Source: Candidatus Omnitrophota bacterium (lineage in GTDB: Bacteria; Omnitrophota; Gorgyraeia; 1-14-0-20-64-10). From it: a stretch of DNA of 64,000 bases. The notes under the pieces are model-generated. The model saw only the letters and a list, made by a program, of their open reading frames with translations, was not told the origin of the DNA and searched no databases. The translations under genes and the position numbers were made by a program. Location: contig JACOVG010000027.1 in the NCBI GenBank assembly GCA_016177405.1, positions 14,733 to 78,732 of the forward strand, given 5' to 3'. Shown in pieces: positions 23,979 to 58,596 of this stretch; position 1 is the first letter of the stretch; every line of letters starts with the position of its first letter.

Positions 23979-24117
23979 CCCGTCTAGTTTCCCACAGATG
24001 CCAGGTGCCCGCAAGACCCCAGGTCGCGAAACACGTTAATAGGAATAGAAATCTCGTGTACACACTTGATTATTTCGAGGGCATCAGGTAGGCTTTTTGT
24101 ATGGGTCGAATTCCGCC

Positions 24118-27105
24118 ATGAGGCCAAACCCGCGATTCTTCTTAGCAAGATTTTTCGCCCCTTTGCTCTCGCTGGGGCTTGCCCTGCCCGATGTCTCTTT
24201 CGCACTTCGGCAGAACATCGAGGGTACCACCCAAGCTGGCTTAGAGGAGGCCCTTCGGCCCATTGTTGCCGCCGGCTTGGAGGAGGAGAGGAGACTGTCG
24301 GAGGCCTTGGAGGGGGCGGCTTTCCAAGGAGGGGCGCGTCTCATGAAGGACATCATCCGGTGGGCCGAAAAAGATCTGGCGGCAGCCGAAGCGGCAACCG
24401 CCGGTTTTTACGAGTTTTCTCAAGCGCGGCTCCCGGATTCGGTCGGCCAAGACAGTAATGGATCAGGCCATCTTATCGCCAGGTTTCTGCGGCTCGCCCA
24501 AAGAGCTCCCACCAGCCCTCCTCCAGCCTGGCCTCGGGCGGGGCCGAGTCAGGAAGAGTCCGCCGGGTCTGACGGAAGGCAAAAAAGCCGTCTCCTGAAG
24601 GCGCCCAAAAGCTATTTCCCCTGGGCCGGCCCCAAGGAGTTTCAGGCAGGCATGAAGGCCGCCCGGGAACGGTTGGCCACAGCGGGGACGGATGAGGAAG
24701 AGGAAAAGGATCCCCCCAGCAAAGAGGAGATCAAGCGGCTGGAAGGGCCCCTCCACCAAGGGCTTCACGCTGAAAACATCCTCCGAGACTATTCGCGCCT
24801 TGTTCAGGAGGCGGAGGATCTGCTGGTCCGGCTTCACCACAGGCTTATCCTCGCTTGCATGAAGGATAAAGGGATTACGCGCGACAGGGATCATCAAATC
24901 TTTGAGGATGTACGCCAAGGCGGCTACCTGGCCTTGCTAAACGCGATTCGGAACTACAATCCCAATCAAGGAACCGCCTTTTCCACCTATGCCTACCAGG
25001 CCATCCGCCGGGAGATCCACGACACCCTTCAGGCGATGTCCAGAAGACTTAGAATTCAGCCGGACGATCTGGAACTCTTTTTCAAGACCGCCCAAGAGCT
25101 GGAGAAGAAGCAGGGGATAGAGCCAGGGCCCGAGGAGATCGCGGAGGTCTTAGAGAAAGAATCCTCTTGGGCCGAGGCGATCTCCCATTGGAGGCAAAAC
25201 CCAGACTCCCTCAACCGGCCGGTAGGCGACGCCCAGCTTCTTGATCTCATCGAGCCCGAACCATTGGAGCCAGAATGGGAGGAAATCGAAGAGGAGAAGC
25301 GCGGCGTCCGTAAGGTTCTTGAGGCGGTGCGCCGCGAGAGCCCCGATGGCAGGCGAGACGCGCTGGTCCTCAAACTTTATTATGAGCTGGGAACCAGGAA
25401 TGGCCCTTACACACAGGAGTGGATCGCCAAGAGAACGGGGATCACCCCTCAACGGGTCAGCCAGATTATCCAGGATGGCATCCAGACGGCCCAAGAGCGT
25501 CTTGAGCTGACCCGTGAAGGGCGCGTGGAACCGATTCGTCCCGAGGCCCCCGGCCCCGCCGCGGGGGTTGCTTCCGGCGACGGCCGGGACAACGATGCCG
25601 ATGTCTATCTGATCGACGTGATGGGGATTCCGTACACGAGCCCCCTCTTTGAGCCGCTAAGCCGGCTTAAGAGGAGAGATCTCGAGAAGATCCAAGGGGC
25701 GCTGTCGGCCCATAGGCCCTTTCCCCTTAAGATCAAGCCAGGGGAATCTTTCCCGCGGCGCTTGACGCGGATCCGCCAATTTTACGGCCTGACCTCCAAG
25801 GCGGCAGCCCAAGGGGCAGGGGTGAGCGCGACAACCTACTCCGCCTGGGAGAACGGGCGCCAGTTGCCCAAGGGAGATTCTCTCAAGCGGCTGGCCCGCT
25901 TCTATGCTGAAGCCTACCGTCTCCATCCGGACGCGGTTCAGAGATACTTGGGGATGAGATCTCCTTGGTCGGTCTTAAGAAAGCTGAAGGGCAAGCCCTC
26001 GCGGCTGATCCTGAAGGGTCTGCGGGTTTCACAGTGGCACTCCGCCGAGGGATTCGCCAGGGCCGCGCTGCCCGGGATGAATCCAAAGAGCTACGTCTTA
26101 TGGGAGAAGGGAAGGAACGTCCCGCCGCTGGCCTTCTTGAGAAGGATCGTCTCCTTTTACGTGAGAGAGCGGGGTTTTCCCCAGCGCTCCCTGGAGAGGA
26201 CCCTTGGGATTCCAAGCCCCAAAGAGGTTCTTAAGGAGTTGAAGGGCAGGCCCCTGCCTGAAATACTGCGCGGCCTGCGCGAGTCGGTTCCCCTGACCAT
26301 CGCCGAACTGGCCTCTTTGGCAAAGATCGGCCCCAGAACCGTCACCCGGTGGGAAAAGGGCGAAGTGGTTCCCCTGCCGGCCAATCTTCGGAAGCCGGCG
26401 GAGGTTTATGCGCGGGGGGGTCATTTTCCAGAGAAAGAGCTCTTGGCCCTTTTGGATATCCCTTCGACAGAGCTGTTTCTTCAAGAGATCGCCTCTCGCC
26501 GGGGCGATGGGCCCAAGCTTCTTGATTCGCTGGAACACTACCTCGGCCTTTCCCAGTCTGGGATGGCCCGCCTGGTCGGTGTCGAGAAATCAACCTATCG
26601 GTTTTGGAAGCAAGGGAGGATAAAGCCGCCTCTTTCCCGGCGCTATCAAATGGTTGCGCGCCTCGCTGAAGAGGGCCGCCTTCCTGTCGAGCCCCTCCGA
26701 GAGGCCTTTGGCCTGGATGGGCCCGAGAAGACGTTGAGCCGTTTAAGAAGCATGCCGTTTCCGAAGGCCCTCCGGCACCTTCGCTGGGTGTACGGCATCG
26801 GAATGTCGAAGGTCGCCGGCCGCCTCGGTGTTTCTCGGTTTACCTACCGAGGACTGGAAAAGAGGGGGACCTTGCCGGCCCGATATCTTCCGACGCTGGC
26901 CGCTTATTACAGCGGTCTGGATGGCCTGCCTTCGCCCAAGCTCTTGGCTGCCCTTGAGGCCGGCCGTCAAAGGTGGCAGTCGGCTGATCGTGTCCGCAGG
27001 ATGGCGGCCGCCCCCGCCGCGCTCTCCGGCGCGGGGCTGGAGGAGGGTCTTTCGGAGCGGCTTCAGAGAGAACGCGGGACCGCCTGGCTCGGCGGGCAGG
27101 CATAG
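24118..27105 (+). CDS. GLEE-punctuated family protein: leader, sigma-70-like module (regions 2, 3, 4), five tandem HTH (XRE-like) repeats of about 85 aa each
   Basis: The start is set at the second ATG (MRPNPRFFLARFF...) because the first ATG lies inside the conserved promoter-like box. Leader ends ...VSFA-LRQ. GLEE at aa 48 and 60 (24097 numbering) and AGLEE 23 aa before the stop. FSTYAYQAIRREI (region 2-like) and LKLYYELG...TQEWIAKRTGITPQRVSQI (region 4-like). Five repeats carry the wEkG core of Cro/C1-type HTH. Confidence 0.6.
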   Translation: MRPNPRFFLARFFAPLLSLGLALPDVSFALRQNIEGTTQAGLEEALRPIVAAGLEEERRLSEALEGAAFQGGARLMKDIIRWAEKDLAAAEAATAGFYEFSQARLPDSVGQDSNGSGHLIARFLRLAQRAPTSPPPAWPRAGPSQEESAGSDGRQKSRLLKAPKSYFPWAGPKEFQAGMKAARERLATAGTDEEEEKDPPSKEEIKRLEGPLHQGLHAENILRDYSRLVQEAEDLLVRLHHRLILACMKDKGITRDRDHQIFEDVRQGGYLALLNAIRNYNPNQGTAFSTYAYQAIRREIHDTLQAMSRRLRIQPDDLELFFKTAQELEKKQGIEPGPEEIAEVLEKESSWAEAISHWRQNPDSLNRPVGDAQLLDLIEPEPLEPEWEEIEEEKRGVRKVLEAVRRESPDGRRDALVLKLYYELGTRNGPYTQEWIAKRTGITPQRVSQIIQDGIQTAQERLELTREGRVEPIRPEAPGPAAGVASGDGRDNDADVYLIDVMGIPYTSPLFEPLSRLKRRDLEKIQGALSAHRPFPLKIKPGESFPRRLTRIRQFYGLTSKAAAQGAGVSATTYSAWENGRQLPKGDSLKRLARFYAEAYRLHPDAVQRYLGMRSPWSVLRKLKGKPSRLILKGLRVSQWHSAEGFARAALPGMNPKSYVLWEKGRNVPPLAFLRRIVSFYVRERGFPQRSLERTLGIPSPKEVLKELKGRPLPEILRGLRESVPLTIAELASLAKIGPRTVTRWEKGEVVPLPANLRKPAEVYARGGHFPEKELLALLDIPSTELFLQEIASRRGDGPKLLDSLEHYLGLSQSGMARLVGVEKSTYRFWKQGRIKPPLSRRYQMVARLAEEGRLPVEPLREAFGLDGPEKTLSRLRSMPFPKALRHLRWVYGIGMSKVAGRLGVSRFTYRGLEKRGTLPARYLPTLAAYYSGLDGLPSPKLLAALEAGRQRWQSADRVRRMAAAPAALSGAGLEEGLSERLQRERGTAWLGGQA

Positions 27106-27171
27106 GGGCGGATTTTTTTGTCTTGGGAATTAATTTATATGCAAAATATTTATTGATTTATAACTATCGGT

Positions 27172-27752
27172 GTGTTAAGCTTCCTCCCCATGATGAAAAG
27201 AGAAAAACACAAGCCACTTCCAACAGCGCAAGTCGCGCAGAGGATCCTTTTCATCCGCGGGCAGAGGGTGATGCTGGACAGCGACCTAGCGGTCCTTTAT
27301 GGAGTTGAGACCAAAGTCCTTAATCGAGCGGTGAGGCGGAATGAAGCCCGCTTTCCTGCAGATTTTATGCTCCAACTCACCCAAGAGGAATACAGATTTT
27401 TGAGGTACCAATTTGGCACCTCAAACTTGAGGTCACAAATTGTGACCGCAAGTTCCAGGCACGGCGGGAGACGCTATCTGCCCTTGCTTTCACCGAGCAA
27501 GGCGTCGCTATGCTCTCAAGCGTTTTGAATAGTGAGCGAGCAATTCAAGTGAACATCTCCATCCTACGGGCTTTCGTGAGGCTGCGAAGGCTCTTGGCCG
27601 CCCACAGGGGGCTTGCCAGAAAGCTGGAGGAGATGGAGAGAAAATACGACGCCCAATTCAAGGCGGTGTTTGACGCGATCCGACAGCTTATGGCGCCGCC
27701 GAAAGAATCCCGCCGGAAGATTGGGTTTCATACCCAAGGGTGCAGGGCTTGA
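27172..27752 (+). pseudogene. ORF6N-domain (KilA-N-related) gene disrupted by a 1-nt deletion and a roughly 33-nt palindromic insertion; paralog of 29615..30148
   Basis: Two overlapping ORFs (27172..27528 and 27510..27752) together align colinearly with the intact paralog ([18 protein letters not shown], RFPxDFMxQL, ...[20 protein letters not shown]). Relative to the paralog, one base is lost after GGRRYLP. An extra segment made of two back-to-back perfect hairpins is present at 27418..27447. Confidence 0.6.
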
Positions 27753-27781
27753 ACCCGGCTCCCCTTACAAAGGAGAAGACG

Positions 27782-28078
27782 ATGACGAAAACGGTTGAGT
27801 TGTCGGTGGTGAGGCTAAACAAGTTCGAAGGGGAAGGGACCGCCAGGGCCTTTTGCGATGTGGCGGTTGCGCAGTCGTTTCTCATCAAGGGAGTGAAGGT
27901 GATCGAGGGAAAGAAGGGGTTATTCGTCAGCATGCCGCGCGAGCAGGGCAAGGACGGCCAGTGGTACGACACCGTGATTCCCTTGTCCAAGGAAGCTCGC
28001 CAGGAGATCTCCGAGGTGGTCTTGGAGGCCTACCGGTCGGGCGCCCAGGCGCCGGCGCAGGCCCCGGCAGGGGAATAG
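27782..28078 (+). CDS. spoVG: SpoVG family protein
   Basis: Translation MTKTVELSVVRLNKFEGEGTARAFCDVAVAQSFLIKGVKVIEGKKGLFVSMP... matches the SpoVG fold signature. The start is taken at the internal ATG. Confidence 0.7.
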   Translation: MTKTVELSVVRLNKFEGEGTARAFCDVAVAQSFLIKGVKVIEGKKGLFVSMPREQGKDGQWYDTVIPLSKEARQEISEVVLEAYRSGAQAPAQAPAGE

Positions 28079-28267
28079 AGGAAAAGAGGATACAGGATGG
28101 GGCGGCCGCTCCCCGCGGCTGCCCTCCCCTTCCCATGAAAGAAGCCGTTCTCACGGAGCAGATAGATCCCCGGATCTTGTTGATCCGCTTGGCGCTCAAA
28201 ACTTGAGATCGCATTGGCTACAGTCTGAGGAGATGGGGTCTAGGGGATGATATAATTTCAGCGACGG

Positions 28268-29521
28268 ATGCGACTCTCCCAATGCCCTGGCAAAGTCTTC
28301 AGCGTGAGGGTTGTTGCCACTTTTCTGGCCCTGAGCCCCATTCTGTCTGCGCCCGCCCTTGCCCTGCGTGACCCAGAAGCGCGAGAGAAGAAGCCGGAGG
28401 TTCTGGGTGGTCTGGAGGAGGTTCTTCGCGGCGATCCCACTACTTCTGCAACGGCTCCTTCCGCGGCTGTCTCCCTAAGCTCCGCCGCCGGGCTGGAGGA
28501 GGGGTATCGGGTGGTACCTGTGACGGAAGAGTACGCCCTGCGGCACGCGGAGGAGTTGGCGGCCATCGATGCGGGGGATCCCGTGTGGAAGAAGGAAGGG
28601 CGTTGGGGTCCGGAGCGTTTCGCCACGGACGTGCGGCCTACCACGGGGACGCGGCTACAGGGTCTTTGGAAGTTCAGCTTCGTTGCGGAGGATGTTTCGG
28701 GGATTCCCGTGGCCTATATCTACGCAGCCGATGGCCAGCCGGACATCCCCGTGACCGCAAGGTACCGCGGGGCGTTTATCGCCCGGGTGAGTGTACGGCC
28801 GAACCAACAGGGACGCAGATTGGGCCCGCGTCTTCTGTTGGCCGTCGCCCGCGCGGCGAAGGAAGCTGACGTAGGTCCCTACGTGACGCTGGAAACGGAC
28901 AAGGAGAACACCCGCGCCCGCCATGTGTACGAGTCACTGGGTTTTCGGAGCGTCGGGGAACGGCTTGAAGAAAAGAAGGGAGTTACTTTCATCGAGTACG
29001 CTGTTCTTGTAGAAAACCTCATCCAGCGCGCGGAGGAGAAGCTCGCCGCCGGCCTGGAGGAGTGGGTGCCGAGGTGGCTGAAGGGACTGGCGACGCCTGA
29101 GGAGTTGGAGCATTGGATTCATCATGGGCACGAAGCCCTGGCGGGGTCTCCGTCGGTGGCGGTGCTGTTTGATCCGGGCTTGGTGCCTGGGAGGGACGAC
29201 GGGGATCGGGAGCTGTTGCTGCTCGAACTGGAGGGACAGATGCGGTCGGTGTTTGCCTTGCCGGAAGAGGTACGGTTCCGGATTGGACTGCGGGGGGCGA
29301 AGGCGGATTGGGAAAGAGAATTCCGGATTATCGAGGTGGTGCGGCATCCGGAAGGCAGGCCGGAGGCCCCTCCCCTTCCGATGGGTGCGTTGCCGTTGGT
29401 GGTTGCGGAGGCGCTGGCCTCTCCCCACCCGCGGTTCTATACCGACCCGCTGATTTACGCCGATTTGACGGAGCTTACCCTGCCGCAGGCCCTGACGGAC
29501 CTGACGGATCTGTTCGCCTGA
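28268..29521 (+). CDS. GLEE-punctuated family protein: leader, GNAT acetyltransferase domain, unknown C-terminal domain
   Basis: Leader ...PALA-LRDPE. GLEE at aa 48, 75 and 262. Canonical GNAT motif A (ARVSVRPNQQGRRLGPRLLLAV) and motif B (YESLGF). TATAAT lies 12 nt before the ATG and there is no SD. Confidence 0.65.
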   Translation: MRLSQCPGKVFSVRVVATFLALSPILSAPALALRDPEAREKKPEVLGGLEEVLRGDPTTSATAPSAAVSLSSAAGLEEGYRVVPVTEEYALRHAEELAAIDAGDPVWKKEGRWGPERFATDVRPTTGTRLQGLWKFSFVAEDVSGIPVAYIYAADGQPDIPVTARYRGAFIARVSVRPNQQGRRLGPRLLLAVARAAKEADVGPYVTLETDKENTRARHVYESLGFRSVGERLEEKKGVTFIEYAVLVENLIQRAEEKLAAGLEEWVPRWLKGLATPEELEHWIHHGHEALAGSPSVAVLFDPGLVPGRDDGDRELLLLELEGQMRSVFALPEEVRFRIGLRGAKADWEREFRIIEVVRHPEGRPEAPPLPMGALPLVVAEALASPHPRFYTDPLIYADLTELTLPQALTDLTDLFA

Positions 29522-29614
29522 GCTGGGCCGCGTTTTTATCCCCCTCGCTATTTGCTTTATTGATAAAATATTTGTTGACATTGCGCTTAGCGTGAAGTAG
29601 CCTATTTTGCCCCG

Positions 29615-30148
29615 ATGCGGAAGAACCCTCTTGCTCTCGCCAGGTCAGTTCATGCGGAAATCATCGAGCGCCGGATCCTGCTGATCCGTAAGCAGCGGGT
29701 CATGCTGGATTCGGATCTGGCCCAGCTTTATGGAGTAACCACGTTTAACCTCAACAAGGCCGTCAAGCGCAACAGGGAACGCTTTCCAGAGGATTTTATG
29801 TTCCAGTTGTCCGTGGGAGAGGCCGGAAACTTGAGATTCCAATTTGGAATGTCAGGTTGGGGAGGCAGACGCTATCTTCCATACGCCTTCACTGAGCAGG
29901 GAGTGGCTATGCTCTCCGGCGTTCTGCGTAGCAAGCGAGCCATCCAAGTGAACATCGCCATCGTGCGGGCATTCGTGCGGTTGCGGCGAATGCTGGCGTC
30001 ACACCGTCACCTGGCGCAGAAGCTGGTGGAATTGGAGCGCAAGCTCGCGAATCATGATCAGAAGATACATTCGATCTTCGACGCGATCCGGCAGCTGATG
30101 GCGCCACCCGCTCCGGCTCGACGCAGGATCGGTTTTCATTCCACGTAA
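29615..30148 (+). CDS. ORF6N-domain (KilA-N-related) protein
   Basis: 177 aa. [42 protein letters not shown] is the ORF6N signature. A TTGACA-17-TAGCCT promoter-like element sits upstream. Confidence 0.7.
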
Positions 30149-34953: not shown

Positions 34954-35037
34954 TGCCGAGGGAGAGAATCGAACTCTCATGGGGTTTCCCCCACAGGTTT
35001 TTGAGACCTGCGCGTCTGCCGGTTTCGCCACCTCGGC
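34954..35037 (-). tRNA. tRNA-Leu (anticodon CAA), type II with long variable arm
   Basis: Reverse complement folds as GCCGAGG acceptor / D-arm / CAGGU-CUCAAAA-ACCUG anticodon arm / long variable arm UGGGGGAAACCCCAU / GAGAG-UUCGAUU-CUCUC T-arm. No encoded CCA. Confidence 0.8.
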
Positions 35038-35044
35038 GAAAAAG

Positions 35045-35120
35045 TGGTGGAGCTGAGGGGGATCGAACCCCTGACCTCCTGCATGCCATGCAGGCGCTCT
35101 CCCAGCTGAGCTACAGCCCC
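35045..35120 (-). tRNA. tRNA-Ala (anticodon GGC), CCA encoded
   Basis: Reverse complement GGGGCUGUAGCUCAGCUGGGAGAGCGCCUGCAUGGCAUGCAGGAGGUCAGGGGUUCGAUCCCCCUCAGCUCCACCA. The G3:U70 alanine identity pair is present. Anticodon loop AU-GGC-AU. Confidence 0.85.
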
Positions 35121-35257
35121 GAAGTTTCTAGGCGACCTTGAGGTCGCCCGTAAACTGGAGTCCCTTTTTGGGACAGCCCCGAAGTACGCAAGCAGTCTAC
35201 TGGCGAACCCCTCGCGTTGTCAACCTTTCCGGCCGCGTGCTAGAATGATTTTCGACG

Positions 35258-37645
35258 ATGAGTTACCCCTTTGCCGAGATAGAGCCGAAGTGGCAGGCCC
35301 GCTGGGACGAAAAGAAGGCCTTCAGGGCTGACCCAGGAGATAGGGGAAAGTATTACCTCCTCGAGATGTTCCCCTACCCCTCGGGCCGGATCCACATGGG
35401 CCATGTGCGCAACTACACCATCGCCGATGTCCTGGCCCGCTTCCGGCGGTCGCAGGGCCATCGGGTGCTCCACCCCATGGGATTCGACGCCTTCGGCCAG
35501 CCGGCCGAGAACGCCGCCATCAAGAACAAGACCGATCCCTCCGCCTGGACCCAGGGCTGCATCCGGCAGATGCGCTCGGAGCTGGAGCGGATGGGCTTCT
35601 CTTACGACTGGGAGAGAGAGGTCGTCACCTGCGAGCCGGACTACTACCGCTGGAACCAGTGGATCTTCCTGCAAATGCTGAAGAAGGGCCTCGCCTACCG
35701 GGCGGGGGCCAAGGTGAACTGGTGCCCGAACTGCCAGACCACCCTGGCCAACGAGGAGGTGGTGGAGGAAGCCTGCTGGCGCTGTGCCACCCCGGTGGAG
35801 CTTAAGGAGCTCACGCAGTGGTACCTGAAGATCACCGCCTACTGCCAGGAGCTTCTGGACGACCTGAAACAGCTTTCCCGTTGGCCCTCGCGGGTGATCA
35901 CCATGCAGGAGAATTGGATCGGAAGAAGCGAGGGGGTGGAGATTGGGTTCACGGTGAAGGGAAGCGGACAGCGCCTGCCGGTCTTCACCACCCGGCCCGA
36001 CACGATCTTTGGGGCGACCTACGTGGTGGTGGCCCCGGAGCACCCCATCCTCAAGGAGATCCGGACCGCCGCCGACGTGAAGAAGGAGGGGATGGCCACC
36101 GGCGCCCAGGCGATCAATCCGGTCAACGGCGAGGCGATCCCCATCTGGACGGCCGATTACGTCCTCATGGAGTACGGCACCGGAGCCATCATGGCGGTGC
36201 CGGCCCACGACCAGCGGGACTTCCTCTTCGCCCGGGAGCATAACCTCCCGGTCCGGGTGGTCATCCGGCCGCCGAAGGGAGGGCCGGATCCCTCCCAATG
36301 GACCGAGGCTTACGAAGGGGAAGGGACACAGGTGAACTCCGCCCAGTTCAACGGGCTCTCCAGCGCCGAAGGCAAGAAGAAGATCGCCGCCTGGATGGAG
36401 GAGAAAAAGTTTGGGAAAAGAACCGTCCGGTGGCGGCTCCGAGACTGGCTCATCTCCCGCCAGCGCTACTGGGGGACTCCCATTCCCGTCGTCCACTGTC
36501 AGGCCTGCGGGGTGGTGCCGGTGCCGGAGGATGAGCTTCCGGTCACCCTTCCCGCCAAGGCCCCCTTGACCGGCGAGGGGGGCTCGCCCCTGGCCAAGGT
36601 GAAGGCCTTTGTGGGGGCGAGCTGTCCCCGGTGCGGGAAGCTGTCCCGGCGGGAGACCGACACGATGGCCACCTTCTTTGACTCCTCCTGGTACTTCCTC
36701 CGCTTCTGCTCGCCCAAAGAGGCGAAGCTCCCCTTTGATCCCAAGGAGGCGGCTTACTGGATGCCGGTGGACCAGTACATCGGCGGCATCGAGCACGCGA
36801 TCCTGCACCTGCTTTATTCCAGATTCTTCACCAAGTTCCTGCGGGATGAGGGGCTCTTGGCGCTCGATGAGCCCTTCACGCGGCTGTTGACCCAGGGGAT
36901 GGTCCTCAAGGGCGGCGAGGTGATGTCCAAGTCCAAGGGCAACGTCGTGGACCCCGACGGGGTGATCCAGCGGTACGGGGCCGATGCCCTGCGGCTCTTT
37001 ATCCTCTTCGCGGCGCCCCCGGAGGATCAGCTGGAGTGGAATACCCAAGCCATCGAGGGGATCTCCCGCTTCTTGAACCGGGTCTGGGATCTGGCGGAAT
37101 CGTCATCGCCAGGAGGTCCGAAGGACCGACGTGGCGATCTCGAGATTGCTTCGCCCCCTGCGGGGACTCGCAATGACATCTCGCTGCGCCGTGCCGCCCA
37201 CGCCGCGATCAAACGGGTCACCGAGGACCTGGAGAGTTTCAAGTTCAACACGGCGATCTCCGCCTTGATGGAACTGAAGAACGCCATCGAGAAATCCCCG
37301 CGGTCTCCCGACGCGCGGGAGGCGGTGGAAACCCTCGTGCGGCTGCTTGCCCCCTTCGCTCCCCACATGGCCGAGGAACTCTGGGAGCGGCTGGGCCACA
37401 AGGAGCTTCTGGTCTCAAACCCTTGGCCCGCGCATGAGGCCTCGCTTCTGGTCGAGAAGGAGGTCACCCTGGTTATCCAGGTGAACGGCAAGGTCCGCTC
37501 CCGCGTCACGGTGCCGGCGGGCCAGGACAAGGAGACTCTCAAGGCCAAGGTCTTAGCCGACCCGGCTGTCCAGAAGTGGCTGGATGGCAAACCAGCCCGC
37601 GACCTCATCGTTGTTCCCGACCGCCTGGTCAACGTCGTCGTGTAA
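35258..37645 (+). CDS. leuS: Leucyl-tRNA synthetase
   Basis: 795 aa. HMGHVRNY (HIGH motif), editing domain, KMSKSKGN (KMSKS motif). Confidence 0.9.
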
Positions 37646-37724
37646 GGATTAATTAAAGGCAGTTATTTTTCTGGTTTTACCCGCGTTTCTTAGGTATACT
37701 TCTTGTATCCGACGCTCTAACCCC

Positions 37725-40700
37725 ATGAAAACAACCCCGATGCGGCGTTTCTTTTTTCTCCGCTTTGTGAGCGCTTTTCTTATTCTCACGCTGGCCGTTC
37801 CCTGCCCAGCCCACGCCCTGCGCGCCGAGGGTCCCACCTCCAGCAAGGTTGCGGCCGGCTTGGAAGAGGCCCTCGGATCTAAAGCCGCCGACCCGCCGAA
37901 GAAGTCCAAGATTGATGTACGGACGAAAGAACTGTCGGTAAAAGACACCGTGCTGACGGTTCAACCCCTTTCACCGGACGATCTCCTGAATTACCGAGAG
38001 GATCTTTGGGAGCTCCTTAAACTCATCCCTACGGACATTCCGCACGATGAAACAATCATAGATGAGATGCGGCAAGGGAAGTGGTACGACCGGGATTTAA
38101 GTTTCGCGGTCTGGGATAAAATGTCGAATCGCCCCATCGCTCTGGCCACCCTGATGATCTCTACAGATCCCCGCTACAAGCTTGGGACGGCGGTCATCCT
38201 TGAGAACTTCGCTGTCCATCCGGATTTTCAGGGGACCCCCGCAACCAGCTGGCTGCTCCACCGTGCCTTTTCCAACGCGCACGCGCTCCTTTCTCGACTT
38301 CATAAGGGGGGACCTCTCTATGCGCACCTGCTCACCATGAAGGGGGGTCGTCCGGATAAGCTGGGTTCAGAACGGGCGGAGCGTTTTTACACCAAGATGG
38401 GAGGGGCGGTCAAGACAAGAATCCCGGTAGGTTGGGAGGTTAAGGCCGGAGAATTCGAGGGTCATGTCTTCAAGAATCCTCATCTGGAGTTTGAGTTTGC
38501 CCTTCCTGGATGCCTCGCGACGATCGAGCAGGAGTTTCAAAAAAAGCTGTCCTCCGGCCTGGAGGAGACGCAGGCGGTGGAGGTTCTTCAATGGAGCATG
38601 GAGGATCTTAGAGAGGTCCTAAGGAAGCGCGGTCTCCTTCGGCTGGGTCAAACCGATGACCAAGCGGCCGAGCTGGCCTTGAAGATGACGCTTGAGGAAA
38701 GATTCAAAACCCGGCCAACGAAACCGATTCTCCTTCGGGTTCTTCCTTCTAACCAGACGCAGGCGAGATCTCTGGAGGAGATCGGGCTTCAGCCTTTGGT
38801 GAGCCGAGAGGATATCGTAAGCCGCCTGGAACTTAGCGCTTATGAGGACCACGCCATTTCCCGCATCCGCCTGGAACAAGAAGGAGAACACCAGCATCTC
38901 TCGGTGCCTCTTTCCAAGCCGCTTAAAATTCCTGGGACAGGGCAATCTCTTGTGGAGGTCCGGATATCGTCCGGAGACCGGCGTTTTGATCAGCTTCCAG
39001 AGGTGTCGCGGCTTGTCCAGGAGCTTCGTGAAAGGAAGGCCAGCGCCTCCGATAAGCGAGATTTCCTCCAAGAGCTGCCCGGGCGGCTGCGAAACGGGAA
39101 GCTTCGCCTCTCTCACCTGCCGGCGTTTCCGCTTGGGTTGAGGGAGGAAGCGGACGTAGAAACGTTTGCCCGACGGGTTCAGCTTGACCCCTCCCACTCA
39201 AACCTTCTGGTATCGGAGGGGAAAGCCCAGGAAGCGCGCGAGCGCGAGGAACGATCCGCCAAGGCGAAGCCTCGAGAATCTCTTCCGGCGGAACCTCCAA
39301 AGAAGGATAAGCCCCCCGCGGCTGATCAGGAATCGGTGGCCCAGGCGCGCGAACTGGCCCGGAAGATTGCGCCGGAGGCCGCCCACGCCCTGGAGAGGCT
39401 TCTTAAAACCTTGGCTCTGGCGGCCTCTTGGGCTGGGATGCCGCCCAATTCAAAGGAGGTTGAAGCGCTGGGGGAAGAGATGCGCCGAGCCCTTGAGCCA
39501 GAACAGGTTGTGAGGAACCACGTTCGGAAAGGCCGCGCGCCTAACGAGGAGGAAGCGAAACGACAGCTTGCCCTGCTGGAAAAGCAGCTGCGGGAACGGA
39601 TGAGGCGATTGTACAAAACGAAATCAAGGGATGAGGTGGTAGCTTCCTTTCTCTCGCAGATTCAGCGGATGGCGACGGAAAAGAATTGGGCCAGCTATTG
39701 GTGGCTGGATCCGGACGTCGAAGTGCCTGTGCCCGAGGCGGTGACGGAGCTCTACCTGGTGGATCCTCCCGAGCTGGATGAGGCCGCCACCGCGGTCCTC
39801 TTGGAAGCGACCCGCTTGCTTCAGGAGGCCTTGGTACACCATCCGCCGGAAGATCCGAAGAGCTTGCTGTTTCTTCGAAAACTTCAGCTTAGCGGGGTGA
39901 GCTACTTGGCGTCAAAGAAAAAGCTTCCCACGGAACTGGCCGACGCCTTCGTTCGCGACCCAGGGACCTACCAGGGGGAGCTTTGGCTGGTGCGCCAGAA
40001 CTTTTGGTACCAGAAAATGCGCACGCAGAAGATTAGCGAAAACCACACGGGTCCACCGGGCTTGGTGCAGAGAGCTCCTCGTAAGGGGAGGGTGGAGAAT
40101 TCCAGCCATGAAATTGATTTTGGAACCCCCGGGCAGCTTTCAAGATCCTCTTTGAAGAAGATGCTTCTGACCAAGATGAAGCTGGTCCAGCAGCCCGTCG
40201 TCAGCGCTCCCCGAACGAATGGGGAGCCCGCAGGGCCGACGTATGACGACCATACCCGAGCCTTCATCCTTCTGGAGGTGGCCAGTCAGCCGGGGCACTT
40301 TTCGAAACCTGGAAAGTTGGAGGACGAGAGAAAATCATTCCTGCGGGTTATGTGGATTAGGGTAAGCGAGTTACAGCGCGCGCTCAAGCAGCCTGAACCG
40401 ACGTTTAAAGATGCCTACCAAAGAGGAAGACCTTTTCTTGAAGCCATTCAGATACCGGAAGAGGTCAGGCGGGATGTCCTCTTGGAGGATCCCGCGGCCG
40501 TTATCAACCTCTCTGCGATTATGTTGGAGGTGATGGCCCGGATCGCCCAGAAGCTGTCAAGCGATTTTCCGTTGGAAGAGGGTCTCGAAGGTAGTCGGGT
40601 CTTGCGCAGAGAGCTGACGTGGCGCTACCCCGCCTATCGGCCCTGGTGGCCCGGTCTGGCAGCCGCCGGCAAAGGTCAACCCTCCGCCGGCCCCTCGGCA

Positions 40701-43700
40701 GAGCTCGGGGCCGGGCTGCCCCAAAAAGGGGCTCCAGTTTATGGGCCACATGAAGGTGGCCCGAAAACTTCGGGGTTGGAGGAGACGGAGGGGAAACCCA
40801 AATCGACGGAGGAGTGGTTTCAAGCGGGGCTTGAATTTCTCCAGGAGAAGGATTTTCCATCGGCCGCTATCGCCTTCAGGGCGGTCACGGATCTGGATCC
40901 TGGCCTGGGAGAGGCGTGGTCGAATTTGGCCATTGCTCTTCTTGAGCAAGGCCTGTTGGAAGAAGCCCTTGCGGCCTCCCAGAAGGCCGTTATTCACCTG
41001 CCAAATTGCGCTGCGTGTTGGCTTATTCTCGGAAACATCCACCGCAACGCGGGCCGCCTCTCCAAGGCCATCAATGCTTATGGGACCGCTCTCGAGCTTG
41101 ATCCCAAGTTGTCCCAAGCCCATTCCCAGCTGGGTTTAACCTATCATCGAATGGCAGTTCTTATTTTGGGACGCCAACCCCCTCCTGATAGTGCCGAAAG
41201 CGAGACCGCTAAAGAATGGCTTCATCTGGCGAAAGAGGCCTACAAAGCGGCCATCGGCTTGAATCCGGATGACCCGCTGACCTTGAACAACCTTGGAAAT
41301 GTTTTCTTAAGCCTGGGCGATCCGGCTTCGGCAGAGGAAAACCTCCGGGGCGCCGTCATGGCCGATCCGGAATATCTGAACCCGTGGATCAACCTGGGCC
41401 ATCTCTACAGAGAAACCGGCCGCTTTTCCGACGCGGCAAAGGCCCTCTGTGAGGTGCTCAAGCTTAAGCCGGAGGACTTTGACGCCTGGGATTTGTTCCT
41501 CAAGATGAGACTGGATTCGCGGGGGCAGGGGCTGGAACGGATTGGCCGCCTTCACCTGATCTGGCACTCCATCTTGAGGTTCTCAAGAGCAGCAAAATCA
41601 CCGGAAGAAATGCCTGAACTTGCCAGGCGGCTGGAGGATGTGAAAAACCACGGGTTCCTCCCAAGCGATGTTCCCTTCATTCTCGGCATACCTGGCGGCT
41701 CTCCCGAGAGGATGTGGAGTTTGTTCTTTGAAAAGAAGGCAATCCGGAAACGGTTCCTGGCGCTGGGCGGGATACTCATTGCCATGGACGGCGCCTGGAG
41801 GACCAACGCGGATGCAGGCCGCTCACTCTCCCCCGATGAGAGAATCAGACAGCTCACAGAAGATACCACCCGAGGCTTGGGAGAGCTCCACACTGAAACA
41901 GGGCTCCCCTTCCTGGATCTCGATGGAGATCCGGAGCTGATGGATGTGATCGCCAGAACGCTCCAGTTCCTATTGTCTCCTCCACCCGAGGCCGGGCTGG
42001 AGGAGAAGATTGAACGATTTGGGGAATTGGTAAGGCAAGCCGGCAAGATCCTCGATGGACAGACGAAGCAAGGCCTCCTGAAGCCCAAGATCCAGCAGAT
42101 TCAAGAAGAAAGGTTCTTCATCGAGGGAGGAATCGCTTACCTTCCGCACCGGCAAGGAAAGGCCGTGGTGATCGGAGACCTCCATGGCGATCTCGAAGCC
42201 CTCCAAAGGACTCTGAAGATGGTAAGAAAGGAAACCGGCTACGACCCCAAGACCAACAAAAACTCCGCCGCTCCGGTCTACCTCGTTTTTGTGGGGGATT
42301 ACCAGGATGCGGGCTCCCAAAGCCTGGAGGTCCTCCTGACCGTTCTGGATCTCTACGCGGAAGACCCGAATCACGTCATCCTTTTGGGGGGTAACCACGA
42401 ACGGGGCCGGGCGCAGTACTGGAGCCCGGACGTGCGGGCGGAGGGCCCTGACTCCCATTGGTTTTTCAAAGACATCAATAAGATCGTGGGCAGAAAAAAA
42501 GGAGGAACGCTTTACGACAGGTGGCATCGGTTGTGCTTAAAGATGCCGGTTTTGGCGGTTGCGTCCCAGGGGCTGGTGGTTGCCCACGCGGGTTCCTCCA
42601 ATACGGTTTTGGAGGGGCCGGGCATCGCTGAAAAATATGGCGAGAAGCTCGATCCCAGGAAGGGACTCTTAGGCATTGCCCAAAGCAGGGATCTCCAGGA
42701 CCAGATCAGCTGGAATCCCATGCCCAGCCCAAAAACAGAAGAAGCGCTTCAACAGGCCCAGCAGGCACCCGATCGGCGCAACGATGCATTCAGGCGGCTT
42801 AATCCCAGGCGGCAAAAGAGAGGTTTTTGGACGGGGCGAGAGGGATTCGATGTCTTCATGGAGGCCATCGGCGGCAAGGTTATGGCGCGGGGGCATGACC
42901 GCCTGGCCCCGTGGTGGGTGACCCTTTTTAACGGCAGGGTGATCACCCTGATTGGGACCCACCACCAGAGCCCCCATTACGGATACCGCAAGGATCAGAT
43001 CACCGCCCGCTTTGCCGTCTTCGACCTTGCCAAGAGCTACGACCGTGTCGATCCCGGGGAAGTGCTCCGATTCCCTTGGGGCAAACCTTCCGCCAAATCC
43101 GGCCTGGAGGAGACGCAGGAGCTGATTGACCGATTGGCCAATTCAGAAGAGCCGATCACCGAGGCAGACGTCCGGGAGCTTAATGGCCATTACCAAGAAC
43201 CTTCCTCTCCAACCTACCGGGAGGCCATGACCTTGCCTCCAAACGCTGAACATGAAGCGGCCGGTGGTTTCCGGCCGGAGGCGCCCATTGCCGAGCAGAT
43301 GAGCGACTTTCTGAAGTGGCTGAATACCGCAGCCGGCAGCCGTCAAGACCCCCGCGTCTATCCGTCGCTGGGGCAGAGCATTCCCGATCGAAAGCCCTGG
43401 AATCTGGATTGGAATGACCCGGCTACCCATGCGGCGATGGCGCACTGGCTTTTCCATCAGGTGATCCATCCCTATGACGATGGAAACGGGCACACCGGCT
43501 GGGCCTTATTGAACATCCTCCGGCGAAGAGCCGGACTGCCGCCGGTTCGGTTCTTAGCGGAGAGAGAAGCCGGCTATCTCAAAACCTTCCGTTTGAATCG
43601 GGATCCCTTTCCGTATCTCCAGTTTATGGAGGAACCGACGGGGATGCAGGCAGAGGGAGGCCTGGAGGAGGGGATGCGGAAGTGGCGCCCGGAGCTGACC

Positions 43701-46004
43701 AGGAGAGTGAGGCAAACCGCCCGGGCGTGGAAAAGGAGGGGATGGCTGCGCTCGACCAGGGCATTCACCCAACCGGTCGTGGAGGCGGCGCGCTATGCCG
43801 AGATAGGCCTTCAAAAATCTCAAGGCAAAATGGGAGGAAGGCAGAGGATTTGGGAAAAGCGACTTCGAACCGTCATGGCCTTCAGCCGCTTTTTGCAGGC
43901 CCTCGAGGCCGATTCCCCTTCCCAGAGCCCCGCGAGAATCCTGGAGGGTTTTTCCCGCGGCCGATCCGGCGAATGGATCGAGTTTCCCGGCTCGGAAGGG
44001 GAGGCATTCCGGGTGAGGGTGGGGATTCGCAGGAGGACCAACCGCGGGGTTGGCCCGCGCAGGGTTGTGCCGCTTATCTCGATGAATTTTGAGGAAGGAT
44101 CTGCCTCGGACGGCCCTTTCCGTCCCATTGGCTCTGTGAGGATTGGTACGGATGAGGACGGAGGCTGGGAAAGGCCCCTGGTTCACCTGGACCTCTCCGA
44201 TCCCGTCAGAGGCGGCAGACAGAGGAATTGGTTTTCGCACGGCGAGATGGCCCTTGCCTGGTCTAACTCGCTAAGGGCTGGCAGGATTCATGAGGCCTTC
44301 GGCGGGTTTCTCAACAAGCTCATCCGCCACATCGAAGCCCTCCCCCGGAAAACAGCCGCTGGGCTGGAGGAGGGGGAAGAGGTGCAGAAGAAATTTAAGG
44401 AAACACTGCTCCGGCTGAATCCGGCTTGGAGACCTTTTATTAACCCTCTCGGTCCCGAACAGCTGAAAGATCTCATGGCCCAACCCTCCCGGGCTTCCCG
44501 ATGGCTGGGCCCACTTTGGGGGGGGATGGGGGGACGTAAGAAAGAACGGATGGAGGCGGAGCTTCAAGAGGCGAAGGGAGTTGCCGATCGTTACGCGCAG
44601 TGGTTAAGGCGGGAGAAACAGAGGCGCTCCTCTCCAGAGGGAATCCGACGCGCGATCGAAGAAGTAAGCCACAGGATTTTCCAATTGGAGCCGCCAGACC
44701 TTCGTGCATCGGTAGGAGAAGTCACGGCAACCATGACTGGCGATCCGCAGTTTTCGGGATTGCGCTACATCCCCATGAGAAGAATGGTCCAGGCGCTTCC
44801 TGTCCTCTCTGAAACGCTGGGGTTGGTCCCAGGCCCAGGCAGGCGCTTTCTGGAGATCGGCGCAGGTCCTGGCGGTGGAATGGGCCTTGTTGCTGCCCTG
44901 AAGGGAATGGAGGTGTTCCTGGTGGAGACCGACCAGCCCTTCGATGTGAATCTGGGTGAAATGAGGGAACATTTTCAACGGATGGACCTCACCTCAGAGA
45001 CGCTGGATCAGATGACGGCGAAAGGTGGAGTGGCGAAGGTAAATCCCCTCGAGAAGCTGGAAAAAACTCTGGCACCCCACCGGGAGGCGATCAAGGCAGC
45101 CAACGGTTCTGTGACCGTCATTCCCGGCGACTTCTCCCGTCCCGAGGTGCAGAAGAAGGTTATTGAGGCCGGACCCTTCTCCATTATTGTGGCAACGGAC
45201 GTAGTCGATCCAGCCGGCGGACAATTTAGAGCCTCACTGGGCGCTACCACAACGGGAGAACCCTCGGCGGCGAGGGCCATTCTCGAGGGATTGGCCAAGG
45301 TGGCGTCGGCTTCCAGTGAGAGGGGGAGATTGTATGTGAGTTTCGTGGGCAGTGAGATGGGTCTCTTGGGCTCAAAGGTTCAAGAGACTTACCAGACCCT
45401 TGAGGAACTCCTTCGAGCCGAGGGTCTTCCGGCAGACCGTTTTGAAATGGCGCCCTCTCCTTCATCAGGGGGAGTTCTTCGGGCTCGGATTTATCGCTTA
45501 GACGGCACCCCCACGGAAGGTTCCTTCCAATCTTTAAGTGAGGTGATGGGGGCCGGGCTGGAGGAGAAGCCGGAATGGGTGCAGGGGATCCGGGCGGCGC
45601 AGAAGCTGGGCAAGGTGGCGGTGCTGTTTGATCTGGAGCTTTTGGCTGAACTGGGAGAAGATGAATTTGCGCTTCGGATGATGCTCGTTGAGCTGGGAGG
45701 CATCTTGCGGAATACCTTGGCTTGGCCCAAAGAATCTAAGCTTCGGCTCGATTTGTCCAGCGAGGCGGATGAATACGTTGGGGAACAGGGGTGGGAGGTG
45801 ATTCGTGTGGTTCGGGATTCGACAAGGGGTGAAGACGAGGAGGCGCTGACCGTGGCCTCACTGCCAGGCATTGTTGCCGAAGCCCTTCAGGCCCTGGCGC
45901 TAGGAGGCGAAATCTTCCCGGTGGTGGTGGGGGTCTATCGAGCGGGGCTGAAAGAGAAAACCTTGCCGGAGGTGTTGTCGGATATGGCCAAGCAATTCGC
46001 GTAA
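37725..46004 (+). CDS. Giant (2759 aa) GLEE-punctuated family protein: leader, GNAT-like, unknown 740-aa region, TPR, PPP-type phosphatase, Fic-like, unknown, class I methyltransferase, C-terminal domain
   Basis: Leader ...CPAHA-LRAEG. GLEE at aa 45, 278, 1017, 1424, 1793, 1979, 2213 and 2611, each at a domain boundary. PPP motifs GDLHGD and GNHE, with GDYQDAG in place of GDxVDRG. Fic-like core HPYDDGNGHTGW. MTase motif I LEIGAGPG. TPR repeats at aa 1050-1400. The first domain is homologous to a domain of the 54178 protein (LIPTD...LSFAVW...AVHPD[FY]Q.TP...WLL..AF, NPHLEFE). Confidence 0.65.
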   Translation: MKTTPMRRFFFLRFVSAFLILTLAVPCPAHALRAEGPTSSKVAAGLEEALGSKAADPPKKSKIDVRTKELSVKDTVLTVQPLSPDDLLNYREDLWELLKLIPTDIPHDETIIDEMRQGKWYDRDLSFAVWDKMSNRPIALATLMISTDPRYKLGTAVILENFAVHPDFQGTPATSWLLHRAFSNAHALLSRLHKGGPLYAHLLTMKGGRPDKLGSERAERFYTKMGGAVKTRIPVGWEVKAGEFEGHVFKNPHLEFEFALPGCLATIEQEFQKKLSSGLEETQAVEVLQWSMEDLREVLRKRGLLRLGQTDDQAAELALKMTLEERFKTRPTKPILLRVLPSNQTQARSLEEIGLQPLVSREDIVSRLELSAYEDHAISRIRLEQEGEHQHLSVPLSKPLKIPGTGQSLVEVRISSGDRRFDQLPEVSRLVQELRERKASASDKRDFLQELPGRLRNGKLRLSHLPAFPLGLREEADVETFARRVQLDPSHSNLLVSEGKAQEAREREERSAKAKPRESLPAEPPKKDKPPAADQESVAQARELARKIAPEAAHALERLLKTLALAASWAGMPPNSKEVEALGEEMRRALEPEQVVRNHVRKGRAPNEEEAKRQLALLEKQLRERMRRLYKTKSRDEVVASFLSQIQRMATEKNWASYWWLDPDVEVPVPEAVTELYLVDPPELDEAATAVLLEATRLLQEALVHHPPEDPKSLLFLRKLQLSGVSYLASKKKLPTELADAFVRDPGTYQGELWLVRQNFWYQKMRTQKISENHTGPPGLVQRAPRKGRVENSSHEIDFGTPGQLSRSSLKKMLLTKMKLVQQPVVSAPRTNGEPAGPTYDDHTRAFILLEVASQPGHFSKPGKLEDERKSFLRVMWIRVSELQRALKQPEPTFKDAYQRGRPFLEAIQIPEEVRRDVLLEDPAAVINLSAIMLEVMARIAQKLSSDFPLEEGLEGSRVLRRELTWRYPAYRPWWPGLAAAGKGQPSAGPSAELGAGLPQKGAPVYGPHEGGPKTSGLEETEGKPKSTEEWFQAGLEFLQEKDFPSAAIAFRAVTDLDPGLGEAWSNLAIALLEQGLLEEALAASQKAVIHLPNCAACWLILGNIHRNAGRLSKAINAYGTALELDPKLSQAHSQLGLTYHRMAVLILGRQPPPDSAESETAKEWLHLAKEAYKAAIGLNPDDPLTLNNLGNVFLSLGDPASAEENLRGAVMADPEYLNPWINLGHLYRETGRFSDAAKALCEVLKLKPEDFDAWDLFLKMRLDSRGQGLERIGRLHLIWHSILRFSRAAKSPEEMPELARRLEDVKNHGFLPSDVPFILGIPGGSPERMWSLFFEKKAIRKRFLALGGILIAMDGAWRTNADAGRSLSPDERIRQLTEDTTRGLGELHTETGLPFLDLDGDPELMDVIARTLQFLLSPPPEAGLEEKIERFGELVRQAGKILDGQTKQGLLKPKIQQIQEERFFIEGGIAYLPHRQGKAVVIGDLHGDLEALQRTLKMVRKETGYDPKTNKNSAAPVYLVFVGDYQDAGSQSLEVLLTVLDLYAEDPNHVILLGGNHERGRAQYWSPDVRAEGPDSHWFFKDINKIVGRKKGGTLYDRWHRLCLKMPVLAVASQGLVVAHAGSSNTVLEGPGIAEKYGEKLDPRKGLLGIAQSRDLQDQISWNPMPSPKTEEALQQAQQAPDRRNDAFRRLNPRRQKRGFWTGREGFDVFMEAIGGKVMARGHDRLAPWWVTLFNGRVITLIGTHHQSPHYGYRKDQITARFAVFDLAKSYDRVDPGEVLRFPWGKPSAKSGLEETQELIDRLANSEEPITEADVRELNGHYQEPSSPTYREAMTLPPNAEHEAAGGFRPEAPIAEQMSDFLKWLNTAAGSRQDPRVYPSLGQSIPDRKPWNLDWNDPATHAAMAHWLFHQVIHPYDDGNGHTGWALLNILRRRAGLPPVRFLAEREAGYLKTFRLNRDPFPYLQFMEEPTGMQAEGGLEEGMRKWRPELTRRVRQTARAWKRRGWLRSTRAFTQPVVEAARYAEIGLQKSQGKMGGRQRIWEKRLRTVMAFSRFLQALEADSPSQSPARILEGFSRGRSGEWIEFPGSEGEAFRVRVGIRRRTNRGVGPRRVVPLISMNFEEGSASDGPFRPIGSVRIGTDEDGGWERPLVHLDLSDPVRGGRQRNWFSHGEMALAWSNSLRAGRIHEAFGGFLNKLIRHIEALPRKTAAGLEEGEEVQKKFKETLLRLNPAWRPFINPLGPEQLKDLMAQPSRASRWLGPLWGGMGGRKKERMEAELQEAKGVADRYAQWLRREKQRRSSPEGIRRAIEEVSHRIFQLEPPDLRASVGEVTATMTGDPQFSGLRYIPMRRMVQALPVLSETLGLVPGPGRRFLEIGAGPGGGMGLVAALKGMEVFLVETDQPFDVNLGEMREHFQRMDLTSETLDQMTAKGGVAKVNPLEKLEKTLAPHREAIKAANGSVTVIPGDFSRPEVQKKVIEAGPFSIIVATDVVDPAGGQFRASLGATTTGEPSAARAILEGLAKVASASSERGRLYVSFVGSEMGLLGSKVQETYQTLEELLRAEGLPADRFEMAPSPSSGGVLRARIYRLDGTPTEGSFQSLSEVMGAGLEEKPEWVQGIRAAQKLGKVAVLFDLELLAELGEDEFALRMMLVELGGILRNTLAWPKESKLRLDLSSEADEYVGEQGWEVIRVVRDSTRGEDEEALTVASLPGIVAEALQALALGGEIFPVVVGVYRAGLKEKTLPEVLSDMAKQFA

Positions 46005-53829: not shown

Positions 53830-54113
53830 GCCCCGGCTGGCAAAGCCAGGTGACGCCGTTTCAGCGGAGGGTGTACCTGGCGGTCCTCCGGATTCCCAAG
53901 GGACAGGCGCGCACCTACGCCCAGATCGCCCGGGCGATCGGCAAGCCCGGCGCTGCCCGCGCCGTGGGTCAGGCGCTCAAGCGCAACAAATGGGCTCCCC
54001 AGATTCCCTGCCACCGGGTGATCTCCTCCGGCGGCCTGGGCGGGTATTCCGCTCCGGGGGGATTGCGCCGCAAGCGCCGGCTCCTTCGCCTCGAAGGGGC
54101 GAAGTTAAAGTAG
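53826..54113 (+). CDS. Stand-alone methylated-DNA--protein-cysteine methyltransferase DNA-binding/active-site domain (95 aa)
   Basis: IPCHRV active-site motif with the Cys retained, preceded by an HTH-like region (RTYAQIARAIGKPGAARAVGQALKRN). The N-terminal MGMT domain is absent. Confidence 0.7.
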   Translation: MSPGWQSQVTPFQRRVYLAVLRIPKGQARTYAQIARAIGKPGAARAVGQALKRNKWAPQIPCHRVISSGGLGGYSAPGGLRRKRRLLRLEGAKLK

Positions 54114-54177
54114 CATATAGCCAGATATATTTCCACACCCCGCGCTGCCCTTCAGGTATACTTTTTATCACCATCCC

Positions 54178-58161: not shown

Positions 58162-58207
58162 CCCCAGGAGTTTTATTTTATAATAGAATATTGACTAATA
58201 TGAAATC

Positions 58208-58414: not shown

Positions 58415-58596
58415 GTCGTGAATCGTGTCACAGTAACCTATTTGTTTCTTTTGGTGGTTGGGCTGATCGGGATCACGCTGACCTACTGGTCGCAGTACCG
58501 CCACCGGCACCAGCGCCACCGCCCCTGATTTTCTTCCTCGCGGAAGCCCGCCTCTTTTCTTGCCCCAGGCTCCATCGGACGCTATAATCGTTCATC

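Follow-up and report, generated by a model that had tools for sequence, protein, structure and literature searches.

What is the short box that stands directly before the start codons of the largest genes in a stretch of 64,000 nucleotides (nt) from a Candidatus Omnitrophota bacterium (contig JACOVG010000027.1, positions 14,733 to 78,732; hereafter the window)? These genes belong to what is called here the GLEE family, after a motif of their proteins, and are located at 24118-27105 (995 amino acids, aa), 28268-29521 (417 aa), 37725-46004 (2759 aa) and 54178-58161 (1327 aa); a further family gene of the same organism is found at 506-3964 of locus L016, the stretch that directly precedes the window. 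In the sequence itself, boxes of the type AGGTATACTT precede the ATGs at 37725, 54178 and 24118 by 15-24 nt. Most likely the box forms the core of a promoter that is specific to the family and lies almost on the start codon, a reading to which we assign a probability of roughly 65%. The observation of the box, first made in an earlier note on this DNA, is confirmed and extended below, and the interpretation given there is partly supported.

The three boxes of the window are all located on the plus strand. The 2759-aa gene is preceded by AGGTATACTTCTTGTAT (37692-37708), whose hexamer TATACT (37695-37700) is 24 nt from the ATG at 37725; transcription is predicted to start near A37707, which would leave a leader of approximately 18 nt. 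The box of the 1327-aa gene, AGGTATACTTTTTATCA (54154-54170), has its TATACT hexamer at 54157-54162, 15 nt from the ATG at 54178, with a predicted leader of about 8 nt, and the positional orthologue of this gene in L001 carries tcAGGTATACTTag 11 nt from its ATG. The 995-aa gene, which encodes a protein with sigma-factor and helix-turn-helix (HTH) domains, is preceded by AGGTAGGCTTTTTGTAT (24086-24102), with a TAGGCT hexamer (24089-24094) 23 nt from the ATG at 24118. The sequences quoted in the earlier note are all present where it placed them, with distances off by one at most. It had further held that the same architecture recurs upstream of 54178 and 28268, which stands for 54178; the 417-aa gene, however, has an extended -10 element, TGaTATAAT (28248-28256, plus strand), 11 nt from the ATG at 28268. 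This is a housekeeping-type TGnTATAAT promoter and not a family box, it is accompanied neither by an AT-rich tract nor by a GTTAAT word, and its site was outside the top 25 matches when the window was scanned with the relatives-trained matrix described next.

The degenerate pattern proposed for the box, of which further copies were sought in the window, occurs at these three sites only (0.03 expected). Because it had been fitted to its own three sites, an independent test was run with a weight matrix derived from eight upstream regions of family genes from other metagenomes only. Among the 127,962 window positions, 54157, 24089 and 37695 took ranks 1, 2 and 3 with scores of 26.9, 20.6 and 20.3 bits (next best 11.9), the second rank falling to 24089 although the training set contained no orthologue of the 24118 gene. 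When one genome at a time was left out in a scan of 216.8 kb, seven family sites occupied ranks 1-7, with 54157 at rank 1. An nhmmer profile of the 78-nt module that includes the box matched only upstream regions of family genes in the window and the fetched loci, and recovered the box of the 37725 gene at 37642-37709. A blind scan of the window and the fetched loci with GGTANNCTT yielded 18 matches, 10 of them (seven distinct) directly before family genes, and uncovered a previously unrecognised family gene (L001 9582).

Outside the window, a TAnACTT-type box is located 7-27 nt before the ATG of family genes in L001 (two genes), L003, L005, L007, L011, L012, L014, L016 and L018 (two genes). 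Among the 17 family genes whose 5' end is known, from about nine genomes, 14 have the full box; the others are the 28268 gene with its housekeeping-type promoter, the gene of L019, which lacks the module, and that of L020, which shows a weak match (nhmmer E = 0.18). On these sequence comparisons, the box is confirmed as a shared, non-chance element conserved before related genes of other uncultured bacteria.

The composition and position of the hexamer indicate what kind of element this might be. In the 15 aligned family sites, the second base of the hexamer is always A and the sixth always T; T at position 1 is present in 12 and G at -14 in 13. The distances from the hexamer to the ATG are 7, 7, 7, 9, 9, 10, 11, 11, 12, 13, 14, 15, 23, 24 and 27 nt; the minimum of 7 nt, never undercut, is reached in L003, L007 and L014, each with ATG as start codon. 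The hexamer is read as the -10 element of a sigma-70-family promoter because the second and sixth positions are invariant and the distance to the ATG has this lower limit. A spacing of 7 nt is what a -10 element would give if transcription begins on the start codon, i.e., the classic leaderless spacing, in agreement with the arrangement reported for leaderless genes of group C bacteria (PMC6028130), and the proximity of the box to the start codon would allow only leaderless or very short leaders without a Shine-Dalgarno (SD) sequence, a conclusion that is supported. The very short or leaderless transcripts claimed for the family fit the geometry of the box. Relatives with a -10 element close to the ATG and no SD sequence have spacings of 7, 7, 7, 9, 9, 10 and 11 nt, and that of the 28268 gene is 11 nt.

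A peculiarity of the 24118 gene is an out-of-frame ATG at 24101, between the TAGGCT hexamer and the ATG at 24118. It opens a six-codon frame, read directly from the plus strand at 24101-24121 (ATG GGT CGA ATT CCG CCA TGA, encoding MGRIPP), that starts exactly 7 nt past TAGGCT and whose TGA overlaps the main start codon (ATGA). Speculatively, and without comparative support, this frame could be a leaderless mini-reading frame coupled to the start at 24118.

The absence of SD sequences from the family genes, also claimed earlier, was upheld: none of the 17 has one. No 4-mer SD core was found in the 20 nt before the window starts concerned (GGAG, GAGG and AGGA are all missing there from the three starts), nor in the 20 nt before the start of 16 of the 17 family genes; the sole SD-like 4-mer, the AGGA of L019, is part of a TAGGAT hexamer. 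The layout is shared with ordinary genes. In the window, a -10 hexamer stands 6-11 nt from the start codon of at least seven of these: leuS (TTGTCA-18-TAGAAT-11-ATG, ATG at 35258), prfB (TTGCCC-17-TATAAT-8-ATG, ATG at 58597) and the genes at 17155 (TAGAAT-8-GTG), 29615 (TTGACA-17-TAGCCT-11-ATG), 31727 (TGGACG-17-TAGAAT-9-GTG), 46048 (TTGACT-17-CATAAT-8-ATG) and 58225 (TTGACT-17-TATGCT-6-GTG). The same layout was observed at fumC, rpsT, prfB, era and leuS of the relatives. A strict 5-mer SD sequence precedes only about 7 of the 27 non-family genes of the window (26 of 76 over the window and three relatives), and the earlier claim of a GGAGG-type SD sequence at most housekeeping genes is not confirmed; nor does the supposed contrast between family and housekeeping genes hold, since SD-less starts with a -10 element 6-11 nt upstream are found at leuS, prfB and others too. 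An SD-less layout with a very short leader is normal here for the first genes of transcription units.

Pairing with the ribosomal anti-SD sequence is nevertheless part of the biology of this organism. The +1 frameshift site of prfB consists of GGAGG (58655-58659), tat and CTTTGAC (58663-58669), so that promoter and frameshift site are contained within 58560-58669; the GGAGG stands three bases before CTTTGAC, and therefore the organism uses SD/anti-SD pairing despite its many SD-less genes. Two further observations concern these upstream regions. Two consensus promoters lie back to back at 35194-35246, TTGACA-18-TAGACT for two tRNA genes on the minus strand (34954-35120) and TTGTCA-18-TAGAAT for leuS. 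CC or CCC directly before the ATG (...cccc ATG, ...tccc ATG, ...atcc ATG) is frequent in family and non-family genes of the window, L001, L003 and L005.

What is specific to the family is the promoter class. Housekeeping promoters of these genomes follow the scheme TTGACA-17-(G)TGn-TAGAAT, whereas those of the family follow tCAGG-TAnACT-T-nTwG with a poor -35 element and an AT tract. T at -6 was found in 15/15 family and 3/19 non-family promoters (p = 4.5e-7), C at -8 in 13/15 and 5/19 (p = 6e-4), C at -16 in 10/15 and 1/19 (p = 2e-4), and T at -15 in 2/15 and 12/19 (p = 0.005); the hexamers of the relatives and the 19 comparison promoters were picked by eye, so these class statistics, like the p-value for the GTTAR word treated below, are post hoc and descriptive. 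The standard two-hexamer consensus scan, with a TTGACA-like -35 element (at least 4/6 matches) 16-18 bp upstream of the -10 element, recovered the promoters of leuS, 31727, 46048, 58225 and prfB and none of the family sites. The family promoters accordingly form a distinct class, marked by T at -6, C at -8, the lack of TTGACA, the AT tract and a distal word. That they differ systematically from the housekeeping promoters of the same genomes suggests common regulation and fits the co-regulation proposed for the family.

The distal word and the AT tract belong to a module of about 75 bp, which consists of a GTTAAT-like word, an AT-rich tract and a weak -35 element, followed by tCAGG-TAnACT-T. 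GTTA(A/G) is located 51-54 bp before the hexamer in 11 of the 15 family sites and in none of the 19 comparison promoters, and the word is rare (105 copies in 423 kb, both strands counted). The AT content of the upstream tract is 0.73 in family and 0.46 in non-family promoters. By eye, TTGnnn can be seen 17-18 bp from the hexamer in about half of the family sites. At several loci the upstream gene extends into the AT-rich tract with its final codons. The tract, roughly -38 to -66 relative to the predicted start, would occupy the position of an UP element or of a class I activator site.

All three modules of the window are on the plus strand. The AT-rich upstream half of the 37725 module (37646-37680) begins right after the leuS stop codon TAA (37643-37645) and contains ATTAAT (37648-37653) and, 17 bp from the hexamer, TGGTTT (37672-37677), a weak -35-like sequence. 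The 54178 module has GTTAAA (54104-54109) 53 bp before the hexamer; the upstream gene, which is methylguanine-methyltransferase-like, reaches with its final codons and its stop (TAG, 54111-54113) into the word and the AT-rich tract (54104-54135). For the 24118 gene, GTTAAT (24035-24040) is 54 bp before the hexamer, the word and tract extend over 24035-24071, and a -35-like TTGATT (24066-24071) is separated from the hexamer by a 17-bp spacer.

Three other readings of the distal word or the box were considered and dropped. An integron core site GTTRRRY is not matched, judged by eye, as GTTAAT and GTTAGT do not fit RRR. A stop-codon effect does not account for GTTAAT, which at several loci falls within the final codons of the preceding gene, away from its stop. 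A Bacillus sigma-B-like promoter (GTTTAA, 12-15 nt, GGGTAT) was rejected as most sites lack a GTTT-like word at 12-15 bp; GGGTAT itself is present in L005 and L016.

The class-specific positions might, in a rather unlikely alternative, be explained by a regulatory protein. The box would then be mainly an operator, at which a dedicated repressor or activator binds tCAGGTATAC, sometimes with a second GGTAT 11-13 bp downstream, over an ordinary -10 element, and the family would be switched as a regulon by that protein instead of by sigma selectivity; this overlaps with the promoter reading and does not exclude it. Conserved positions outside the hexamer (C -16, A -15, T -6, G -2) indeed differ from those of housekeeping promoters, GTATAC is palindromic, and the distal word, with its fixed spacing, might be bound by this protein as well or by a different one. 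About 7 of the 15 sites have a second G(G)TA(T/A) 11-13 bp past the first (e.g., GGGTATACttgaGGTATAC in L016 and GGTATACttagtGGTATCC in L001), but half of the sites are without such a repeat, and in the others it falls where initiation is expected. Moreover, the positions that vary least are exactly those of a -10 element, and the loci examined contain no candidate regulator gene linked to the family.

It is quite improbable that transcription is driven by a promoter within the upstream AT-rich tract, or that the family genes are transcribed by read-through from the gene before them, and that the box is 5' untranslated RNA acting on translation or stability in place of an SD sequence. The tract does contain -10-like hexamers, such as TATAAT 37 bp upstream in L001 and TATATT at about 54127 in the window, but without a consistent position; no terminator was found between leuS or the methyltransferase-like gene and the family genes, and AGGT is able to base-pair with 16S rRNA at its 3' end. 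A ribosome-binding element would not, however, be expected to vary in its distance from the ATG between 7 and 27 nt, and the lower limit of 7 nt and the conserved A2 and T6, which are positions of a DNA -10 element, likewise argue for a promoter. An SD sequence or alternative ribosome site was rejected for lack of a core motif and because of the varying distance. A structured leader or riboswitch was rejected as well: the Rfam scan of the window gave only two tRNAs above threshold and no cis-regulatory RNA family, RNAalifold predicted 0 conserved pairs in 14 upstream regions, and the 5' ends predicted for the 37725 and 54178 mRNAs are unstructured.

That the box has no specific function, its similarity being due to chance or to recently copied 5' ends, is already disfavoured and hardly credible: the family genes are paralogues with a common signal-peptide-like head and the pattern of the earlier note was fitted to its own three sites, but the coding DNA downstream is not alike (N-terminal peptides are 26-39% identical), box and distal word are islands in the alignment, the same box is found in other genomes even though the identity of their family proteins is only 36-47%, and the out-of-sample matrix ranking holds.

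Under the promoter reading, the box is probably a promoter core, in which an extended -10 region is followed by a T-rich discriminator and the initiation site, before nearly every family gene. G(-14) and TAnACT would be recognised by RNA polymerase with a sigma factor of the sigma-70 family, aided by the AT-rich tract (-38 to -66) with its leading GTTAAT-like word as an UP-like element or activator site, and a weak TTGnnn -35 element is present in about half of the sites. Transcription would begin at a purine 7-8 nt past the hexamer and yield an mRNA that is leaderless (three relatives) or has an SD-less leader of 2-20 nt, to be translated by a leaderless or 5'-end-dependent route that many ordinary genes here apparently use too. 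C -16, A -15, C -8, T -6 and G -2, together with the lack of TG at -15/-14 and of TTGACA, may constitute the common regulatory handle of the family, by a logic like that which separates sigma-S-type from sigma-70 promoters in Escherichia coli.

Several points weigh against this reading. We infer from the sequence the use of the hexamer as a -10 element, the start position and a factor that reads the class-specific positions, and the statistics that set the class apart are post hoc, as stated above. The -35 element is weak or absent, and in three sites the best -35-like hexamer is 20-21 bp away. In the organism of the window, three of the five family genes would have leaders of 16-20 nt and would thus be short-leadered instead of leaderless. 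The genes of L019 and L020 and the 28268 gene are exceptions. Orthologous housekeeping promoters (e.g., that of leuS) are conserved as well, and conservation among orthologues alone proves little; the case for the box is made because it is conserved among paralogues at about nine different genomic positions.

As to the factor that might read the box, the sigma-like protein of the family had been hinted at. The protein encoded at 24118 scores below every NCBIfam sigma cut-off and has no relative besides itself at E <= 1e-10, while the box is kept in about nine genomes, which makes it an unlikely reader. Within the window and the fetched contig fragments no other sigma gene was seen, and none of the loci examined revealed a regulator gene consistently linked to the family genes. 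Tentatively, the whole head of 75 bp (GTTAAT word, AT tract and tCAGGTAnACTT box) could be recognised by a sigma factor or an activator peculiar to the lineage, which would switch on all GLEE-family genes as one regulon, and the head might also travel as a unit with the signal-peptide coding part when such genes are gained or lost between housekeeping genes.

Proteins of the GLEE family share a signal-peptide-like head with a hydrophobic stretch, A-x-A and an invariant LR. Behind it follow cytoplasmic-type domains with (A)GLEE motifs between them, including sigma-70 regions 2-4 with XRE-type HTH repeats, GNAT, TPR, metallophosphatase, Fic, ARMT1-like phosphatase, WD40 and HATPase. The ARMT1-like module is flanked on both sides by GLEE in nine relatives, and the domain sets vary between positional orthologues (2759 aa versus 1777 aa after leuS). 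The arrangement looks like domain shuffling or a polyprotein in which GLEE might serve as junction or cleavage site. The C-termini of family proteins often end in F-A or F-V. The family genes (24000-29600, 37700-46000 and 54100-58200) have a G+C content of 0.57-0.60, lower than that of their neighbours, and a third-position GC of 0.66-0.72 versus 0.8-0.9 in the neighbours.

Relatives with 36-47% protein identity were found in groundwater and other metagenomes. A search with an N-terminal profile returned three short fragments only, and a search of a genome collection for relatives returned one locus only; in the literature, nothing relevant on AGLEE or GLEE in connection with Omnitrophica and no account of the family was found. 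Some of the relatives are positional orthologues, with leuS followed by the family gene (window 37725, L003 10001), or uvrC, a methyltransferase-like gene, (ARMT1), the family gene, prfB, secA and lnt (window 54178, L001, L018).

In L001 (9500-11680) and L018 (13000-16400), a family gene with the full module is located between lnt and the aspartyl/lysyl-tRNA synthetase gene (aspS). It is absent from the organism of the window, where only 27 nt separate the two genes (L021 3700-3745), so that module and gene appear to be gained or lost as units between housekeeping genes. At this site the C-terminus of Lnt runs into the AT-rich tract and ends in ...ILIKYKS or ...RLRRIII. The surroundings of the 417-aa member include ORF6N-domain genes (KilA-N-like, DNA-binding) on both sides (27172-27528 and 29615-30148) and a SpoVG gene (27740-28078); an ORF6N gene is also found beside comM in L003.

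The promoter signature marks nearly every member and offers a means of detecting more of them in genome sequences, and the shared promoter class predicts their joint expression. The family it marks is an undescribed one from an uncultured lineage, with proteins of up to 2759 aa that combine a secretion-type head with cytoplasmic-type domains and GLEE separators. The data also add sequence-level evidence that this lineage widely uses a layout with the -10 box almost on the start codon, which affects the calling of gene starts in such metagenome-assembled genomes.

The promoter itself is a variant of a well-known bacterial architecture, as far as its sequence can tell. Among known systems, the SD sequence resembles the box in its place just upstream of the start codon, and AGGT could pair with the anti-SD sequence; the family box differs in that no SD core is near the starts and that its distance is variable and mostly too long. 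Another parallel is group C of the GeneMarkS-2 classification (Actinobacteria, Deinococcus-Thermus), in which the Pribnow box is found 6 to 8 nt from gene starts, with a -10 element at operon-first genes and SD sequences at internal genes (PMC6028130). The family genes of the window, leuS, prfB and others likewise have a -10 element a few nt before the start, and SD-type GGAGG is still used at the frameshift site of prfB. Unlike the genome-wide habit of group C, however, the box is family-specific, and the three large genes of the window, with 15, 23 and 24 nt between hexamer and ATG, would be short-leadered and not strictly leaderless. No report of leaderless starts for Omnitrophica was found in the literature.

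Extended -10 and UP-element-dependent sigma-70 promoters, reportedly treated by Barne et al. in 1997 and Estrem et al. in 1998, are similar to the family sites with their G at -14, weak -35 element and AT-rich tract at about -38 to -66. In the rRNA promoters of E. coli, the C-terminal domains of the alpha subunits bind such an AT-rich tract. The T at -15 of the TGn motif, however, is present in 2/15 family sites versus 12/19 housekeeping promoters, and the family tract opens with a GTTAAT-like word at a fixed distance, a feature not known from UP elements.

Promoters of sigma-S (sigma-38, RpoS) of E. coli are also favoured by AT-rich upstream DNA. Their -10 consensus is CTACACTT, compared with TGGTATAATG for sigma-70, and they tolerate a degenerate or missing -35 element, according to passages of PMC2759082 that cite Weber et al. 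2005. With C at -8 (13/15), T at -6 (15/15) and a weak -35 element, the box of the family, TA(T/C/G)ACTT, agrees with them. It differs at position -13, which is G in 10/15 and C in 3/15 sites, so that it departs from the diagnostic C of CTAyaCTT, and RpoS is a proteobacterial protein. The resemblance to sigma-S promoters may therefore be understood not as membership but as a parallel for the mechanism by which the family promoters could be selected.

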